From sequence record MW250785: a stretch of 64,000 nt of DNA, one strand, 5' to 3'. Made by a program: the position numbers and the translations under genes. The stretch's first letter is position 1, and the number at the start of each line of letters is the position of its first letter. The notes under the pieces were generated by a model. It was not told where the DNA came from. It ran no database searches and saw only the letters and a program-made list of their open reading frames with translations. Shown in pieces: positions 26,017 to 44,375 of the stretch. The DNA comes from Escherichia phage UPEC03.

Positions 26017-28263
26017 TTAGATTTTGACTTCTTTTTCTTCCAGGACGATTTCACATTCGAATGATGTGGTTTCCCAGACTTTCCAGAAATCGGATGGAAT
26101 ATTATCTTCTTTCGGAAGAATATCTTTTGCAGCGATAGAAACTTTGGTTTCTTCGAAGTCCAGATCCGCGAACCATGCATGGGCTACTACAACACCGTAC
26201 ATTACGCGACTTAAACGGGCATTCAGTTTACGGACTTCCTGAATCGTTGCCTTTGTCTGCTTATCAAGATACTCGACTACCTGATCTTTGTCAAGCGCAT
26301 CCAGTTCAGATTTCACCTGATCGTAAGCCCACAGGATAATCAGGTCGCCGTTGTTCAGTTTCTTCTTACCTTCGTCACGTTTCGCGACGGTAGCCGCTAC
26401 AGCAGGAAGGGAGGAAACACCCTTGACTTTCACGTTCAGTTCTTTCGACATGTAAACATCAGTCGATTCTGTGCGCTCAACCTTCGGAGAGAACCCGTAA
26501 TCACGAATATCCTGTTCAGACAGCCATTCACCCGCTGCATCACCAAAGCGCTGTTTCAGCCCTTCTGCGTTGCGCAGTCCGATCGCGTTGTCACGGAAGA
26601 ACTTCATAACCTTCTGACGGCCTTTCAGGATTTCCAGACGCACGTTATCAGTCACGAACTCTTTACCGCTTAACCCGCGAGTCATGCCACGGTTAACCAG
26701 AGGCAGAGAGGTAAAGTCTACCAGTACCGACATACGGTCATCACCGATTTTTTCCAGCGGCTTGATAGTCAGGCCAGAAGCGCGAAGGTTTTTCAGTGTC
26801 GGAATATCAGTTTCCAGCGGCAGAACTTTCACGTTCACGATACCATCTTTAACGATGGTGAAGTTACGCACCTGCTTAGTTTCGATTTTTTCCGGCAGAC
26901 CGAATTCTTTCTGTTTGCTTTCTGGGATAGTCACATACCCTTCCAGATCCGTGTTGATGGAAATGTTAGGACGGGAACTGTTACCCACCAGATGTTTAAC
27001 CGATACTTTGGTTGTGGTCTGGGTAAATTTCGGTGTCCAGACTTCATGCGCTACCATTTGCGCCGCCAGTGCTTTACGTTCTTCTGGGATTGCAGCGTTT
27101 GCGATCTGTTCGGTCAGTTGATCCAGTGTATCATCTTCTTTCTGTACAGTCTGACGGCCTGTGCGGTTATACGCCCAGTGCTCAGAAGACAGGTCGATCA
27201 CTGTGTCAGTTTGTGCCAGCAGTTCGAGCGCATCAACCAGAGTGAACGCGTTTTCGTCTGGAACCATGTTGTAATCAATACCATCAACGAAACGCTGTGA
27301 TGGATCTACAACAGCCTGTGCAATCAGGTCTTTCGCGTTGGAGTAGTCCTGTTTGGTAAAGCAGTTGTCATACGCCTTGATCAGACGGACATCACCCAGC
27401 TTTTGAAGCACTTTCCATGCCAGATCAGGGTTCATTGTGTGCAGTGCATGATAAAGCACGACATACAGAACTTGCTGTTCGCTGGCGATGTTCGGATCGA
27501 ATCCGTCAACATCATTAATCGCGTTTTCACCCAGCGCCCAGATGTTTTTGATGTGTTCTGGAACTAGCACAACACCGTTTGCAGCGTTCAGGACATACAC
27601 GCACCCTTCGTCCAGGTAGATCGCATGGGTAGCATCAGCAACTTTGACTTCGATACGCGCGGAAGTCTGCGCGGTGATGATTTCGTTAAATGCTGGTTCG
27701 TATGCGTCGAAACCTTCAACGAATTTGTGCAATGCGTTGGTTGCTTCTGCCATTTTTTCCAGCAGAGGACGGTTTACATAATAACCGTATTCCAGGAACG
27801 CGATACTGTTGAAAGTCAGTGGCAGAACCGCACACGCTTTCAGAATATCATCGGTACGCCAGCAGTTATCATAACCATCAGTCAGGAAGATCAGGCTGTT
27901 CAGGTTGCCGTTTTCAGATTGCAGATCGGTAGCGATTTCCGCAGCCAGATTCAACGGCTCAACAAAGCCAGTACAACCCGTAGGTTTCAGGTAACGGTCG
28001 ATAGCCGCGCAGATGTTAGACAGGTCAGAGACATTGCTAACCTTCTCACCACGGAACACCGTGCCGTAATCGCCTTTGCTGGAGAAGTACAGGATCGAAA
28101 CGGTGTCATCCTGTTTAACCAGACTCGCCAGATTTGCTTTCAGGTGTTTACGGATCTTAGGCAGTTCGTTGTACATTGAACCGGATACGTCACACACGAA
28201 AACGTGGTTTGTCGGGGTTGGCTTCGATACAGCGTTTTTGAATTCGATATTTGTGATTGACAT
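26017..28263 (-). CDS. von Willebrand factor A (vWA) domain protein
   Basis: 748 aa; N-terminal MIDAS motif VFVCDVSGSM and later FLTDGYDN; long C-terminal region with no motif recognised. Confidence 0.7.
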   Translation of the reverse strand: MSITNIEFKNAVSKPTPTNHVFVCDVSGSMYNELPKIRKHLKANLASLVKQDDTVSILYFSSKGDYGTVFRGEKVSNVSDLSNICAAIDRYLKPTGCTGFVEPLNLAAEIATDLQSENGNLNSLIFLTDGYDNCWRTDDILKACAVLPLTFNSIAFLEYGYYVNRPLLEKMAEATNALHKFVEGFDAYEPAFNEIITAQTSARIEVKVADATHAIYLDEGCVYVLNAANGVVLVPEHIKNIWALGENAINDVDGFDPNIASEQQVLYVVLYHALHTMNPDLAWKVLQKLGDVRLIKAYDNCFTKQDYSNAKDLIAQAVVDPSQRFVDGIDYNMVPDENAFTLVDALELLAQTDTVIDLSSEHWAYNRTGRQTVQKEDDTLDQLTEQIANAAIPEERKALAAQMVAHEVWTPKFTQTTTKVSVKHLVGNSSRPNISINTDLEGYVTIPESKQKEFGLPEKIETKQVRNFTIVKDGIVNVKVLPLETDIPTLKNLRASGLTIKPLEKIGDDRMSVLVDFTSLPLVNRGMTRGLSGKEFVTDNVRLEILKGRQKVMKFFRDNAIGLRNAEGLKQRFGDAAGEWLSEQDIRDYGFSPKVERTESTDVYMSKELNVKVKGVSSLPAVAATVAKRDEGKKKLNNGDLIILWAYDQVKSELDALDKDQVVEYLDKQTKATIQEVRKLNARLSRVMYGVVVAHAWFADLDFEETKVSIAAKDILPKEDNIPSDFWKVWETTSFECEIVLEEKEVKI

Positions 28264-31931: not shown

Positions 31932-32164
31932 TCCGTTTTAATACCATGTCGGTATGCGTCAATCCCCAGCGGGGTAATCAGCAACCATGCTTTCGAATTA
32001 TCGTGATAGCCCGTTACCCTTCGAGCGTAACCTTTTTGAATCAGGGCATCACGCCCTGATTTGCTGGGTACGTCATCGAAATCTAAGTCTAGCACCTTAG
32101 TTGCATATCCGTAAAGTTTATACAGAACATCAATTTCAGCGCCGGACAATTTAGGATACATCAT
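31922..32164 (-). CDS. hypothetical protein
   Basis: 80-aa ORF. Confidence 0.5.
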   Translation of the reverse strand: MMYPKLSGAEIDVLYKLYGYATKVLDLDFDDVPSKSGRDALIQKGYARRVTGYHDNSKAWLLITPLGIDAYRHGIKTEWH

Positions 32165-33162
32165 TTGTAATACCCCACAACATGATCGCGGTATACGCGT
32201 TCGATGAAATCGTTCCAGAATTCGCGGTCAACTTCTTTCGGATATGTTGAAATCGCTGCAAGCCGTTCGACTTCGCCCATGACTTCTTCCAGCTTTTCCT
32301 GTACGGTTGCGAACGGTACGCCGCCAGCTTTAACCAGTTTCAGGAATGCGCTATCAGGCAGAGGATAAACGATATCACCATCTTTGTAAATCTGGATCAA
32401 CTGCATACCACCGCGCAACGCGTGACTTAAAGCCTTCCAGTCGATGCCGTTGTTGGCTTCTGCTTGTCGTGCGCGTTCTCCGTATTCATCCCAGAGTTTG
32501 TACACTGACTTACGCATTTCATCGGCTTTGATCGTGAACTGGAATTTACGCCCCAGCACTTCATAGAAGTCCTGACAACCAGATTTCATTGTCGTGTCGG
32601 TAACGAATCGGCAGAACTCGTTTGTAGGGAAACGATTCTTGATGTCAGACACTTTCACTTCACGCGTATAGCGTTTCATATCTGGTGTGAATTCCTGAAT
32701 ACCACCGATCGTTTCGGTTTCTTTCAGTACATCGACAACTTCGCGCAGTGCAGCCAGTCGGGAACCTTTCACACCATATTTTGCGGCTTGCTTGCGAACA
32801 TAACCGAACAGGCCAGTTAGTTCAGTGGTGTAAAAACGCCAGCGGTTAGCGCGGATATACTGCCAGATTTCAGAGTTAGCGATCAGCTTGTCATCCGAAG
32901 CGTGAAGCATATCGAGCGCTACGGTATCACCATCACACGCAAGGCTGATAAACTTAGTCAGACTATACAACTGACGATCAACGTCGTCTACGGTGTTTTT
33001 AGAGCTTTTATCGCCCGTGCTGGTGTCGATAGACTTCTTCGCAGTGCCTAACAGGATTTCGCGAGGATGAGGGAGATAGATCCCTTTGTAGTCTTTATCG
33101 CTTGTTGGTGTTTCCAGTCCGTAAAGATGGGATCCAAAAATCATTTCAGTAATCATTTTCAT
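32161..33162 (-). CDS. nucleotidyltransferase (pol-beta superfamily) of unknown specificity
   Basis: GS-x10-DxD signature FGSHLYGLETPTSDKDYKG; start moved to ATG 33162, which has RBS ggag and a TAATG overlap with the upstream stop. Confidence 0.55.
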   Translation of the reverse strand: MKMITEMIFGSHLYGLETPTSDKDYKGIYLPHPREILLGTAKKSIDTSTGDKSSKNTVDDVDRQLYSLTKFISLACDGDTVALDMLHASDDKLIANSEIWQYIRANRWRFYTTELTGLFGYVRKQAAKYGVKGSRLAALREVVDVLKETETIGGIQEFTPDMKRYTREVKVSDIKNRFPTNEFCRFVTDTTMKSGCQDFYEVLGRKFQFTIKADEMRKSVYKLWDEYGERARQAEANNGIDWKALSHALRGGMQLIQIYKDGDIVYPLPDSAFLKLVKAGGVPFATVQEKLEEVMGEVERLAAISTYPKEVDREFWNDFIERVYRDHVVGYYK

Positions 33163-33920
33163 TATACAAATCTCCAATAAAACCCTTTATGAGTTTTTCT
33201 TTTACCGTTACAGCATGAACTTACATGCCCTTTGTTATACCCCATTTCAACGGCTTCCACAATACCACCATTTAAAATAGTTTCTCTTTCTGTTTTGATA
33301 CATTTCATAATCAAAGGTTTTATCAATTCCGTCTTCTTTTGTGAAATATTAGCTAATGCAATTACATTTCTGATATCAGATTCACTCATTAAATCAGAAA
33401 TCTTCTTTCTTAACCATACATAGCCTTGACTTTTGGCAAGTTTGCCGGAGCAACATTCATGAATATGACTAGGGTTAAATCCACGCAATTTCATTTCTTG
33501 CCGACCGCCTAATATGATAATCTCGTCTCCTGTTTCAAGGTTGAATCCGACAACTGGAATTATTTGCCGTTCCGACATTTTCTTTCTCGCTTCTTTCGTG
33601 AATATTGTAAGAGATTTTAATTTTCTCGCGTCGCTCATTTGCGAAGATGTCGTTTTGTATTTCTTAGTATTATGAGACATACGGAAAAAAGCATATCTCA
33701 TTTTATCACCAGCATACTTAGCAAGTAGATGATGAGCAAGATAATGCTCTTTATATGTTAAATATACTAAATTTTCGGGTTCATCAGTACCACCTAATGA
33801 CTTAGCAACGATATGGTGTATATCATAACCGCGCTTTCTATACTTTTTCGAGTAACCTTTAGGTATATCTCTTCTTTTTGCCAATGTAATTAGTTGGTCG
33901 TAAATACGCTTATAGTTCAT
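33162..33920 (-). CDS. HNH homing endonuclease (Mob-like family)
   Basis: HNH motif YDIHHIVAKSLGGTDEPENLVYLTYKEHYLAHH; start at internal ATG 33920 with RBS ggag; paralogous to ORF 61728..62396. Confidence 0.65.
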   Translation of the reverse strand: MNYKRIYDQLITLAKRRDIPKGYSKKYRKRGYDIHHIVAKSLGGTDEPENLVYLTYKEHYLAHHLLAKYAGDKMRYAFFRMSHNTKKYKTTSSQMSDARKLKSLTIFTKEARKKMSERQIIPVVGFNLETGDEIIILGGRQEMKLRGFNPSHIHECCSGKLAKSQGYVWLRKKISDLMSESDIRNVIALANISQKKTELIKPLIMKCIKTERETILNGGIVEAVEMGYNKGHVSSCCNGKRKTHKGFYWRFV

Positions 33921-34050
33921 ACACTCTCCTTTAGGCGTATTTATCACTTAAAATCCGAACACGGTTTCCATAATCATTTTCATCAGAATTCAACCTTTAA
34001 TGTTTTTGCGATCCCGCGCAATTCCGCGGTAGTAATAACAGGGATCATAA

Positions 34051-34323
34051 TCATTTCCTCACAGTTTCAAATTCTTCGTCAGATTTCCAGTACACGTTAA
34101 AGTTACGGCAATCGTGGTCGGAAGTCAACGTATATTTTTCTTTTGTTTTCTCGTCGGTGATCACCATCGTTTCATTCTCGATCGAGTCCACACCATAGAC
34201 GAATACTTTATCACCGCGTTTATTCAGGAACGCTTCACCTGTTTCAACCAACTGCCAGCAGTTGACGGGTAAACCACCCGCACAGATCGGACGGTTTACG
34301 AGGCAGTAAGGACGTTTAATCAT
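34051..34323 (-). CDS. hypothetical protein
   Basis: 90-aa ORF. Confidence 0.5.
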   Translation of the reverse strand: MIKRPYCLVNRPICAGGLPVNCWQLVETGEAFLNKRGDKVFVYGVDSIENETMVITDEKTKEKYTLTSDHDCRNFNVYWKSDEEFETVRK

Positions 34324-34547: not shown

Positions 34548-34603
34548 TATATAATACAAAAGCCCTCACGCGAACGCAAGGGCTTTTTTAATCTTTTATC
34601 AGA
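34548..34603 (-). promoter_or_regulatory. PeSL-like stem-loop/promoter cassette
   Basis: minus-strand reading: aaaaaagccc-TTGCGT...-gggctttt hairpin, TATTAT, ACACATACCGCATGAA leader. Confidence 0.5.
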
Positions 34604-35666
34604 GTCCCGTGAAAGCTACAACGATTTGATAGTGGTCATCGAAGAATTCCCCTTGTCGTTGTACGACCTCATGTAAGGGCATCCAGAACGCCTCTAACGC
34701 ATCGTCAGAACCGCCCATAATGCGGGGCAGACTACCATCATTGTTAGGCTCTAACTTGATGTACTGCGCCACAGTCGGTTTTGAGAAGTGTACGGAACGC
34801 TTCGGATGATCGAACAACATCGAATTGCGGATTGAACCACGGATAACCTTTTCAGGAACCTTGATCCGTACCTCTTCGAGCAGTTCGCGGATCGCACAAT
34901 CCAGGAACGTTTCATTTGCGTTTTTGTGTCCGCCGGGAAGGGCTAACGCGTCTTTACCTGGGGCGAACTTACGACGAATTACCAGCAGGTGATTGTTGCA
35001 CACAACCACACTATCACCCGTGCAACAGTTTAGCGCGTCGGGGTATGGGTAGTTTTTGAATTTCTCCAATTCGCTTTCCCATTTCTCGTATTCGTAGAAT
35101 AAACGCCAGAACGTGTCTTCCATCATCCATTTGTCGATATAATCAACGGTTGCTTGAGGAACAAAGCGCAACAGTTTCTTATCCCACCCGTTTTTATGGT
35201 TAAAGATAATCGGACGCAGATCGGTTGCTGATAGATCCTTGCCGTTAATCTGGACAGGTGGAACTGGTACGTGTGTCCATCCGAACGCTTTAAGCCAGTA
35301 TGAACCTGCATCTTTTTCGTAACCGTAGATAGCGATTTTGTCGCCTTTGGTTTCCCTGATAGCAGTACGAACAGAGGTTTTCCATTTCTCTTCGTTGTAA
35401 AGATAATCTGGAATGTGCTCAAACTGAACACGAACAACATCTTCGATCGGGAAGTTAGCGTTTAACCATGAGAAGATCATGGTTTGACGCTCACGCGCCG
35501 TCAGCGGGTTTAAAACGTTAGGGTAAGCATATGCTGAACCCAGAAGGATGTAAACGATCTTTGCTTCTCCGAGTGCTTTACGCACCATTGCTGCATGACC
35601 ATTATGGAAGGGTTGGAATCTGCCAATTACGACAGCTTTATCAAATTGTTTCATAACGTGCTCCAC
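34599..35666 (-). CDS. bifunctional NMN adenylyltransferase / Nudix hydrolase (NatV/NadM-like)
   Basis: 355 aa; HxGH motif GRFQPFHNGH at the N-terminus; C-terminal Nudix box GGHKNANETFLDCAIRELLEEV. Confidence 0.8.
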   Translation of the reverse strand: MEHVMKQFDKAVVIGRFQPFHNGHAAMVRKALGEAKIVYILLGSAYAYPNVLNPLTARERQTMIFSWLNANFPIEDVVRVQFEHIPDYLYNEEKWKTSVRTAIRETKGDKIAIYGYEKDAGSYWLKAFGWTHVPVPPVQINGKDLSATDLRPIIFNHKNGWDKKLLRFVPQATVDYIDKWMMEDTFWRLFYEYEKWESELEKFKNYPYPDALNCCTGDSVVVCNNHLLVIRRKFAPGKDALALPGGHKNANETFLDCAIRELLEEVRIKVPEKVIRGSIRNSMLFDHPKRSVHFSKPTVAQYIKLEPNNDGSLPRIMGGSDDALEAFWMPLHEVVQRQGEFFDDHYQIVVAFTGL

Positions 35667-35679
35667 GTTTAAAGGTTAA

Positions 35680-35778
35680 TCATAAAACAGACGCAATCAC
35701 CAATACACCAAGAAAACCGCCAATAAAGCCGAAGAATAGCGAAATGAAGATAGTAAGGATGATCTGTTTTATGTTCAT
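35680..35778 (-). CDS. small hydrophobic peptide (32 aa)
   Basis: hand-found ORF MNIKQIILTIFISLFFGFIGGFLGVLVIASVL. Confidence 0.3.
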   Translation of the reverse strand: MNIKQIILTIFISLFFGFIGGFLGVLVIASVL

Positions 35779-35794: not shown

Positions 35795-35818
35795 GGAGAA
35801 AGCCCCCGCTCTGGGGGC
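35795..35818 (-). terminator. terminator after the SPFH gene
   Basis: agccccc-agagc-gggggct hairpin with T-run on the minus strand. Confidence 0.55.
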
Positions 35819-35827
35819 TTTAAACCC

Positions 35828-43019: not shown

Positions 43020-44366
43020 TTAAAAGTTCTCTTCGACGAATGCAGCCAGTCGCCCACGATATACGGTATCCAGGATCACATGACTTGAATGACCGTACTC
43101 TTTAAGTTTTTCAACCGCATACACAAAGCCGTTGTTAACAGCAGTGTTGCGCGGGTTGTCAATCTGTTTAATGTTCCCGCATAGTATCAGAAGGGTGTTC
43201 TCACCGCAACGGGAAATGATGGATTTGATTTCGTGATTGCTCAAGTTTTGACATTCATCAACAATCAGAACCGAACCTTTACCCGGATCAGGATGCCCGA
43301 TTGAGCGCCCACGGAAGTAATACAGGCTAGGGAACTGGACAACGTTTTTCTCCAGCAGCCCTTCTACGTATTTGTCAACTTCCGGTTGATCCTTAAACAG
43401 AATGTTCAGGCTCGTAATACATGGTTCTACAGCAGGACGCAGTTTTTCGCCAAGAGTACCAGGTAAGAACCCGATTTCGCCCGACAGAGGGCTATCTGCC
43501 TTGACATACATCAGGTTTGCGAAGTGTCCCGCGTTTACCATGTGCATTGCACCAGCAACAGCCAGCATGGTTTTACCTGAACCCGCCGCGCCCATGATGG
43601 TCACAACGTCATTGTTTTTGTCCAGAATAGCATCAACGAATGACGCTTGCAGAGCATCGCGAGGCTGAATTGTTTTCATCAGCTTACGCTTTAACGCCTG
43701 TTCGTGCTTAATAGGCAACACTTCAAGCTGAAACTCTCCAGCATTCACCACACGCCCTACAATCTCACCACACGATAGAATGTATTGGTTAGGGTAGAAA
43801 TCCGCGTCAGGAAGCGATGAATACGTTATAACGGCAACAGGCCCGACATACTCCAGGACTTCAACAGTTTCCCAGAACAGAGGCAGGTCGATATAACCTG
43901 AATACAACACATCACTATCTTTCAGCGAGTCATCGCCAGTGTATTGAAGAACCGAACAACCTTTAGACATCGCGATCAACAGCATGTTAATGTCACGAGT
44001 CACCAGAGTTGCGCCCTGCTGAATACAAGTTGCAATGATCCGCGCATCCTGTTTATCCAGAGGGAATTCTTCGGTGCCGTCATAATCGACGATTTTCAGT
44101 GTTACGCTTTCCGGTACTGCTGGGTTCGATAAGTTTAACGAAACCCCTGTTTGGGTAATTGCTTCATAATTTTGTCCCAGGATTGCTTTGGACAAAAGCC
44201 GGATCGCCAGTCGTGCTTCATGAGCGGTTCGCTCTTTGCTTTTCAGGTGATCCAGTTCTTCCATCGTTGCAGCGGTGATAATGATTTCGCTGTCAGGTTC
44301 GATGTAAGAATAGATTGAATATGGGTTACTAATCAAAACATTGGTGTCTAATACGTATTTTGACAT
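43020..44366 (-). CDS. PIN-domain PhoH-like ATPase (PhoH2-type)
   Basis: N-terminal PIN-like YVLDTNVLI; Walker A GAAGSGKT; Walker B VLIVDECQN. Confidence 0.8.
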   Translation of the reverse strand: MSKYVLDTNVLISNPYSIYSYIEPDSEIIITAATMEELDHLKSKERTAHEARLAIRLLSKAILGQNYEAITQTGVSLNLSNPAVPESVTLKIVDYDGTEEFPLDKQDARIIATCIQQGATLVTRDINMLLIAMSKGCSVLQYTGDDSLKDSDVLYSGYIDLPLFWETVEVLEYVGPVAVITYSSLPDADFYPNQYILSCGEIVGRVVNAGEFQLEVLPIKHEQALKRKLMKTIQPRDALQASFVDAILDKNNDVVTIMGAAGSGKTMLAVAGAMHMVNAGHFANLMYVKADSPLSGEIGFLPGTLGEKLRPAVEPCITSLNILFKDQPEVDKYVEGLLEKNVVQFPSLYYFRGRSIGHPDPGKGSVLIVDECQNLSNHEIKSIISRCGENTLLILCGNIKQIDNPRNTAVNNGFVYAVEKLKEYGHSSHVILDTVYRGRLAAFVEENF

Positions 44367-44375
44367 ACATTAACC

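Follow-up and report, generated by a model that had tools for sequence, protein, structure and literature searches.

The natV gene and its flanking signals

In the 64-kb window, that is, the whole stretch of phage DNA that we analysed (64,000 nucleotides), a mechanical ORF list gives a 355-codon ORF on the minus strand (34599..35666). The original prediction placed a gene on this ORF with its start at 35666. The ORF is real, but the start had to be corrected. The GTG at 35666 overlaps a Shine-Dalgarno sequence, GGAG (35661..35664, minus strand), located 6 nt upstream of an ATG at 35654, and the annotations of the phages Miller and Miro have a ribosome-binding site there as well. Because of the GGAG at this distance, and because the ATG is annotated as the natV start in the close relatives Citrof4 and GAP161, the ATG at 35654 is most likely the true start. 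The predicted natV gene (34599..35654, minus strand) would thus encode 351 aa followed by a TGA stop, and the residue numbers of NatV domains and motifs below refer to the 351-aa protein. The ORF list, the solved structures 2QJO and 2QJT, the PRK05379 models, PHROG 395 and the NatV protein of Vibrio phage KVP40 were used to annotate this CDS as a putative bifunctional NMN adenylyltransferase/Nudix ADP-ribose pyrophosphatase.

Two hairpins bracket the gene. A terminator-like hairpin with a 13-bp stem (34558..34587, minus strand) begins 12 nt past the natV stop; the corresponding site in Miller and Miro bears a terminator annotation. The other hairpin, AAAGCCCCC-AGAGC-GGGGGCTTT (35799..35821, minus strand), lies just after the upstream SPFH gene; its stem is kept and its loop differs in Miller. 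This second hairpin sits between the SPFH gene on one side and a small ORF and natV on the other. The small ORF showed 2 synonymous versus 4 nonsynonymous changed codons in a comparison against Miller only. Scanning for sigma-70 promoters around natV, we found 3 sites versus 2.9 expected in shuffled sequence. When the 170-nt gap upstream of natV was inspected by eye, neither a T4 late promoter (TATAAATA) nor a middle promoter with a MotA box could be recognised convincingly. A 32-aa ORF just upstream of natV (35680..35778) would encode a membrane peptide that is conserved and unannotated.

NatV has the two-domain architecture of NadM-Nudix enzymes

The N-terminal part of NatV, about aa 1-185 (35100..35654, minus strand), was assigned as a NadM-type NMN adenylyltransferase domain by the Pfam family CTP_transf_like, by the NCBIfam NMNAT models and by the NMNAT halves of 2QJO and 2QJT. 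Alignments locate in it the HxGH nucleotidyltransferase motif HNGH (aa 17-20; 35595..35606, minus strand), inside GRFQPFHNGH, and the second ATP-binding motif SxTxxR in the form SATDLR (aa 142-147; 35214..35231, minus strand). In the C-terminal part, Pfam NUDIX covers aa 215-336 (34647..35012, minus strand); this Nudix hydrolase domain matches the Nudix halves of the same two structures. A three-way alignment, described below, places the Nudix box GHKNANETFLDCAIRELLEEVRI at aa 242-264 (34863..34931, minus strand). GRFQPFHNGH and a C-terminal Nudix box had originally been read from the letters of this ORF, and both are indeed present. Compared with the consensus Gx5Ex7REUxEExGU, the box fits all positions except the penultimate G, which is replaced by R, and the catalytic R-E-x-x-E-E is intact. 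The Pfam matches (CTP_transf_like, E 6e-8; NUDIX, E 5e-14) both exceed their gathering scores, and the domain assignment is therefore far beyond chance.

Searching the NCBIfam models, we find that the best seven matches are full-length PRK05379 models, named bifunctional nicotinamide-nucleotide adenylyltransferase/Nudix hydrolase, with E values down to 6e-74. Stand-alone NMNAT models rank next (PRK13793 with E 1e-24, arch_NMN_Atrans and PRK01153), and CoaD and RibF-type models reach E 1e-4 or worse. The best model, NF003786, missed its equivalog cut-off (249 bits versus 397, E 6e-74), and its match is full length despite the low score (5-355 versus 11-354 of 354). As the PRK05379 equivalog cut-offs delimit narrow bacterial sub-clusters, we read the score below the cut-off as divergence from these sub-clusters, not as a sign of a different family.

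A PDB search aligned NatV end to end with Synechocystis slr0787 (2QJO; E 2e-54, residues 6-338 of 341) and with Francisella tularensis NadM (2QJT/2R5W; E 4e-45, 2QJT residues 6-342 of 352). These are the only two solved bifunctional NadM-Nudix enzymes. The three-way alignment of NatV, slr0787 and Francisella NadM has 75 invariant columns, including IGRFQPFH.GH, the T..R of SxTxxR, ALPGG, the RE..EE core of the Nudix box, FD.P.RS and DH.QI. The counterparts of SATDLR are SSTAIR in slr0787, NATEFR in Francisella NadM and SATDFR in KVP40 NatV, so that Francisella NadM has N where NatV has the first Ser. The R at the usual Gly position of the Nudix box is shared by slr0787. Unlike the bacterial enzymes, NatV is phage-encoded, and it stays below an equivalog cut-off that was built on bacterial subfamilies.

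The enzymology of KVP40 NatV and NadV was reportedly described by Lee, Li and Miller in 2017. NatV of the window aligns with KVP40 NatV (KVP40.0162) with 40% identity over 348 residues (98% coverage, E 6e-86). The KVP40 protein has the same two-domain architecture with all motifs conserved, and its length is 341 aa compared with 351 aa here. It has IGRFRPFHNGH where our NatV has IGRFQPFHNGH, keeping the HxGH. The NMN-site residues D78, Y79 and W85 of KVP40 NatV (PMC13464706) align with D83, Y84 and W91. Both phages are T4-like Straboviridae, with natV near an nrdC.11 homologue and no nadV adjacent to it. However, KVP40 is a Schizotequatrovirus of Vibrio, whereas the phage analysed here is assigned to Pseudotevenvirus of Enterobacteriaceae, and the two NatV sequences are 60% divergent.

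These alignments bear on the question of whether the N-terminal domain might belong to the CoaD, RibF, TagD or citrate-lyase ligase family, or be inactive, in which case the protein would not be an NMNAT. For this domain, Pfam offers nothing more specific than CTP_transf_like, a generic family, at residues 13-67, and PHROG 395, which matches NatV, carries the label "cytidyltransferase". On the other hand, the NMNAT-specific models match at E 1e-24 to 6e-74, far ahead of CoaD and RibF, the alignment with the NMNAT domains of 2QJO and 2QJT takes in the entire N-terminal half, and both nucleotide-binding motifs and the NMN-site D-Y...W are conserved. We thus regard a non-NMNAT identity as extremely unlikely, and the N-terminal domain does not appear to come from another cytidylyltransferase family. 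The original prediction, an NMNAT-Nudix fusion that resembles NatV and belongs to phage NAD+ salvage, is borne out by Pfam, NCBIfam, the PDB and the KVP40 alignment alike. Taken at the level of sequence, NatV joins a complete NadM-type NMN adenylyltransferase to a Nudix ADP-ribose pyrophosphatase, with both activities predicted.

The Nudix domain could also have another main target, such as the ADP-ribose-derived immune signals (e.g. gcADPR of Thoeris) or NAD-capped RNA; in that case, NatV would in addition act directly against defence. The intact catalytic residues of the domain are in line with such a function. slr0787 is an active ADP-ribose pyrophosphatase, and the close alignment to it, including FD.P.RS, speaks instead for ADP-ribose as the substrate. 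Phage Nudix domains form two clades, the T4 NudE type and the NadM-salvage type (Iyer et al., PMC9503650), and the domain of NatV falls in the latter, not in the NudE clade. An immune signal or capped RNA as the main target is therefore improbable in our judgement, and we keep ADP-ribose as the predicted substrate.

Relatives and gene order around natV

We compared the window with database records. At the DNA level, natV is 99.7% identical to that of Citrobacter phage Citrof4 and Enterobacter phage CYPEBC003 and 98.8% identical to that of Cronobacter phage GAP161; the CYPEBC003 NatV protein is 100% identical to the one in the window. In total, natV matches 69 phage records. Positions 1-25000 of the window are 99.1% identical to Enterobacter phage EC-F1, and positions 39001-64000 are about 97% identical to GAP161. 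EC-F1, GAP161, Citrof4 and CYPEBC003 are members of Pseudotevenvirus, the RB16/RB43 "pseudo-T-even" group of Straboviridae, and their genomes are ~178 kb long. By these matches, the phage of the window is itself a Pseudotevenvirus of the RB16/RB43/GAP161 group. It is a mosaic, with no identical match among the database records compared. The window corresponds to ~40-105 kb of the GAP161 map, which is about 36% of the genome; it starts within nrdA and reaches the gp5 baseplate gene.

The gene order tk - rI - rI.-1 - SPFH/band-7 - natV - small genes - nrdC.11 (RlaP family) is kept in Pseudotevenvirus and Slopekvirus. Aeromonas phage 31 has a looser order, rI ... natV ... nrdC.11, and KVP40 retains just the proximity of nrdC.11 and natV. 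No neighbour of natV or nadV contains a NAD-related domain, and no Prs/Adps-like gene is found there.

nadV is present in the close relatives, outside the stretch covered by the window

The original prediction stated that no nicotinamide phosphoribosyltransferase is encoded in the 64 kb, which we could confirm. Using NadV proteins of the relatives as queries, tblastn returned only noise in the window, with E 1.8 as the best value. The window has eleven reading frames of at least 350 codons, and each can be assigned to a named gene; these are NrdA, NrdB, RnlA, ligase, baseplate proteins, a VWA protein, NatV, PhoH and radical SAM, with no phosphoribosyltransferase among them.

The full annotation of GAP161 locates nadV elsewhere in the genome. 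GAP161 natV is GAP161_126 (76119-77174, minus strand), and nadV is GAP161_237, which encodes 477 aa (149632-151065, plus strand). The two genes are 72.5 kb apart on opposite strands. Relative to the stretch equivalent to the window, nadV is located beyond the right end, at a distance of about 44 kb. In Citrof4, natV is at 99313-100368 and nadV at 172478-173911; the spacing of about 72 kb was measured in these two genomes. A dispersed layout is also seen in the sister genus Slopekvirus, where natV and nadV of PSKm4DII are located at 60 kb and 159 kb, respectively. KVP40 nadV was not found within +/-6 kb of natV, nor in the 44-62 kb stretch. Given the absence of nadV from the 6 kb on either side of KVP40 natV, adjacency of the two genes would, by analogy, not be expected here.

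The identity of GAP161_237 was examined in the same manner as that of NatV. Pfam finds NAMPT_N and NAPRTase, and the protein passes the NCBIfam PRK09198 cut-off (460 versus 405 bits). Its PDB matches are nicotinamide phosphoribosyltransferases only, with E 1e-105 for a bacterial enzyme and about 2e-85 for human NAMPT. It is 49.5% identical to NadV of the KVP40-like phage nt-1 and only about 25-30% identical to NARP1-type homologues. A PncB-type NAPRTase identity was considered and rejected, as the PDB matches are Nampts only. The immediate neighbours of GAP161 nadV (154 aa and 102 aa) have no Pfam match.

Performing megablast, we found full-length nadV in 63 phage records, compared with 69 for natV. 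The counts per host genus differ in only two genera. For natV there are seven additional Klebsiella records, probably of the more divergent Slopekvirus type, and one 61.6-kb Citrobacter entry appears in the nadV matches only. Among the best 25 of the 69 natV records, nadV is present with 95.6-100% nucleotide identity in all 22 distinct genomes, CYPEBC003, Citrof4, Fraggle_ER53 and EC-F1 included. In one relative, Cronobacter phage leE, the nadV annotation is split into two CDSs, whereas natV is intact; therefore, loss of the partner apparently can occur, or leE nadV was mis-sequenced.

The lack of a visible NadV had originally been given two explanations, a partner located elsewhere or a stand-alone enzyme that works on host-derived NMN. 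The former agrees with the presence of nadV in 22/22 relatives, whereas the latter found no support. A NatV acting alone would draw on NMN of the host, for example from turnover of NAD+-dependent ligase, in a phage that lacks NadV. The NadV-free 64-kb window and the leE annotation are in line with this idea. However, the window does not reach the nadV region, all 22 distinct close relatives carry nadV, one of them with an identical NatV, and natV and nadV co-occur almost completely in published censuses (bioRxiv 10.1101/2024.02.11.579819 and PMC7139368). We hold a NatV without NadV to be very unlikely, and loss of nadV from this mosaic genome is conceivable but improbable. As in the relatives, nadV is presumably present in this genome, and the window would end about 44 kb short of its site. 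The original framing of a NatV without a visible partner does not stand, because the window stops short of the nadV region. NadV appears to be lacking because one third of the genome was read and the two pathway genes are unclustered; in other words, the puzzle of a lone NatV reflects the window boundary, not biology. More generally, a partner gene that is absent from a partial window does not mean a genome without the partner, notably for unclustered pathways.

The fixed place of natV in the order rI - SPFH - natV - nrdC.11 across several T4-like genera, the bracketing hairpins and the location of nadV 72 kb off on the opposite strand could follow from a job of NatV that is independent of NadV. 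For instance, NatV might use its Nudix domain to destroy toxic ADPR or immune signals derived from ADP-ribose, and the putative 32-aa membrane peptide may take part. We give this only a slim chance.

A probable role of NatV in raising NAD+ during infection

NatV is very probably the second enzyme of the two-gene NadV/NatV (NARP2) pathway, in which NadV would supply NMN and the NAD+ level would be raised or restored during infection. This reading starts from the domain architecture, motifs, homology and genome position observed above and from nadV in all close relatives. The enzymatic activities of NatV and NadV and a counter-defence role in this phage would be those of the characterised homologues. 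NadV (Nampt), encoded about 72 kb away on the opposite strand and outside the window, would convert nicotinamide and PRPP to NMN. The N-terminal NadM-type domain of NatV would join the AMP of ATP to NMN to yield NAD+, and its Nudix domain would split ADP-ribose into AMP and ribose-5-phosphate, which host Prs could reconvert to PRPP. By these reactions, both products of the NAD+ cleavage made by defence systems would be recycled. Together, NadV and NatV would raise or restore NAD+ in the infected cell, including after depletion by defence systems of the TIR or SIR2 type.

Expression or knock-in of the KVP40 Nampt and Nmnat, a pair named NARP2, abolishes defence by type I Thoeris and DSR2, and the pair raises NAD+ in infected cells (Osterman et al. 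2024, bioRxiv 10.1101/2024.02.11.579819). The same study reports a NARP2 frequency of about 1.1% among phage genomes; of the phages with KVP40-type Nampt, 94% also encoded Nmnat. Its Table S2 lists the Nampts of GAP161 (JN882287), RB16 (HM134276) and Margaery as "Nmnat-associated", and the representative of the Margaery cluster is MN508623, which is EC-F1, the phage that best matches positions 1-25000 of the window. PMC7139368, citing the KVP40 study, puts the NatV-encoding phages that also carry nadV at 50 of the 50 then known.

The other two pathways, NARP1 (Adps and Namat) and NARP3 (PnuC and a NadR-like protein), have the same end result, as NAD+ is rebuilt in the infected cell. They also share parts with NARP2: Namat of NARP1 is a Nampt homologue, and NadR of NARP3 contains an NMNAT domain, with a ribosylnicotinamide kinase domain where NatV has Nudix. 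Both were considered for these phages. NARP1 was rejected, since no Prs/Adps-like gene lies beside nadV of GAP161 or is annotated in GAP161, and NARP3 was rejected, since neither PnuC nor NadR is annotated anywhere in GAP161.

The same enzymes could have been selected for another reason, namely as a general NAD+ booster for a large, fast-replicating phage and not specifically for counter-defence. NARP2 raises NAD+ also in cells that lack a defence system, and it is costly because PRPP is consumed (bioRxiv 10.1101/2024.02.11.579819). In GAP161, nadV is surrounded by the nucleotide-metabolism genes Dam, NrdC, NrdD and NrdG, and natV is 2.4 kb from tk, which fits such a supply function. NatV homologues occur in 467 phage records, and the phages in the listed sample of these are nearly all >100 kb, mostly large myoviruses and jumbo phages. 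The abolition of Thoeris I and DSR2 defence by the KVP40 pair (bioRxiv 10.1101/2024.02.11.579819) argues for counter-defence instead. The two roles are compatible, and sequence does not separate them; we view a mainly booster function as possible, though rather doubtful. On the NARP2 reading that we prefer, natV marks this phage as a likely NARP2 carrier and otherwise adds little beyond annotation. The gene is useful for predicting which Pseudotevenvirus phages may escape the NAD+-depleting systems Thoeris, DSR and SIR2-HerA. Phages of this genus are frequently isolated with a view to treating infections by Klebsiella, Enterobacter, Cronobacter and Citrobacter.

The natV feature is already known, given Table S2 of Osterman et al., PMC7139368 and GenBank labels that are a decade old. 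The RB16 and GAP161 records in GenBank have carried the label "bifunctional NMN adenylyltransferase/NUDIX hydrolase" for over a decade. In many records, this gene is labelled "cytidyltransferase" or "hypothetical protein", and nadV is labelled "nicotinate phosphoribosyltransferase". Consistent naming would help, because the natV and nadV records carry such discordant labels.

A hydrophobic small ORF and two hairpins adjoin natV

Inspecting the 'intergenic' DNA that separates natV, which encodes the NMN adenylyltransferase/Nudix fusion, from the SPFH gene, we find that it is occupied by an unannotated small ORF of 32 codons (window 35680-35778, minus strand) with a strongly hydrophobic product, MNIKQIILTIFISLFFGFIGGFLGVLVIASVL. 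The ORF keeps its position and an intact frame in the Pseudotevenvirus relatives Citrof4 and GAP161, with 100% amino acid identity. It is also intact at the same place in phage Miller and the Slopekvirus Miro, where the substitutions are conservative. The comparison with Miller gave 2 synonymous versus 4 nonsynonymous codons, a count that does not settle the coding status. In contrast, Aeromonas phage 31 carries an 82-aa TM2-domain gene immediately 5′ of natV in place of the 32-codon ORF.

Stable hairpins lie on both sides of the unit formed by the small ORF and natV, at window 35799-35821 (upstream, minus strand) and 34558-34587 (downstream, minus strand). The Miller and Miro annotations give the downstream one as a terminator. 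The stem of the upstream hairpin is conserved in Miller despite a different loop, which suggests that its structure may be under selection.

Mosaic relationships around natV

Judged by its database matches, the window is a mosaic. The nearest match to window 1-25000 is the Enterobacter phage EC-F1 (99.1%), yet the EC-F1 NatV protein is just 89.5% identical to that of the window, while natV of CYPEBC003 and Citrof4 matches the window gene at 99.7-100%. This discordance indicates recombination among co-circulating Pseudotevenviruses.

A further, local mosaic difference from the closest relatives is found about 650 bp downstream of natV. The window has here an HNH/I-HmuI-NUMOD-like homing-endonuclease ORF of 261 aa (33162-33947, minus strand; replaced region about 33139-34065), whereas Citrof4 and GAP161 have about 1.2 kb with three small genes (Citrof4_153-155).

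The homologue of nrdC.11 (window 32161-33177, minus strand) matches Pfam RlaP, an RNA-repair-pathway pol-beta-type nucleotidyltransferase. Its distance from natV is within about 1.4-4.5 kb, and this neighbourhood recurs in Pseudotevenvirus, Slopekvirus, Aeromonas phage 31, and KVP40 (the window and compared loci L007 and L009-L011).

The nadV gene of phage leE and other genes of the window

In Cronobacter phage leE, natV is intact and its Nampt partner gene nadV (KX443552.1 152634-154056) is annotated as two overlapping CDSs of 318 and 161 aa, with a megablast match length of 1423 nt instead of 1434. The split reflects either a frameshifted partner gene or a sequencing error.

Two more products were assigned domains. 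At the N-terminus of a group-conserved 'hypothetical protein' of 748 aa (window 26020-28263, minus strand), Pfam identifies a von Willebrand factor A domain (VWA_3/VWA_2/VWA, E about 1e-6), and the 'PhoH family protein' (window 43023-44369, minus strand) is a fusion of a PIN domain (PIN_4, E 3e-15) and a PhoH ATPase (PhoH, E 4e-35).
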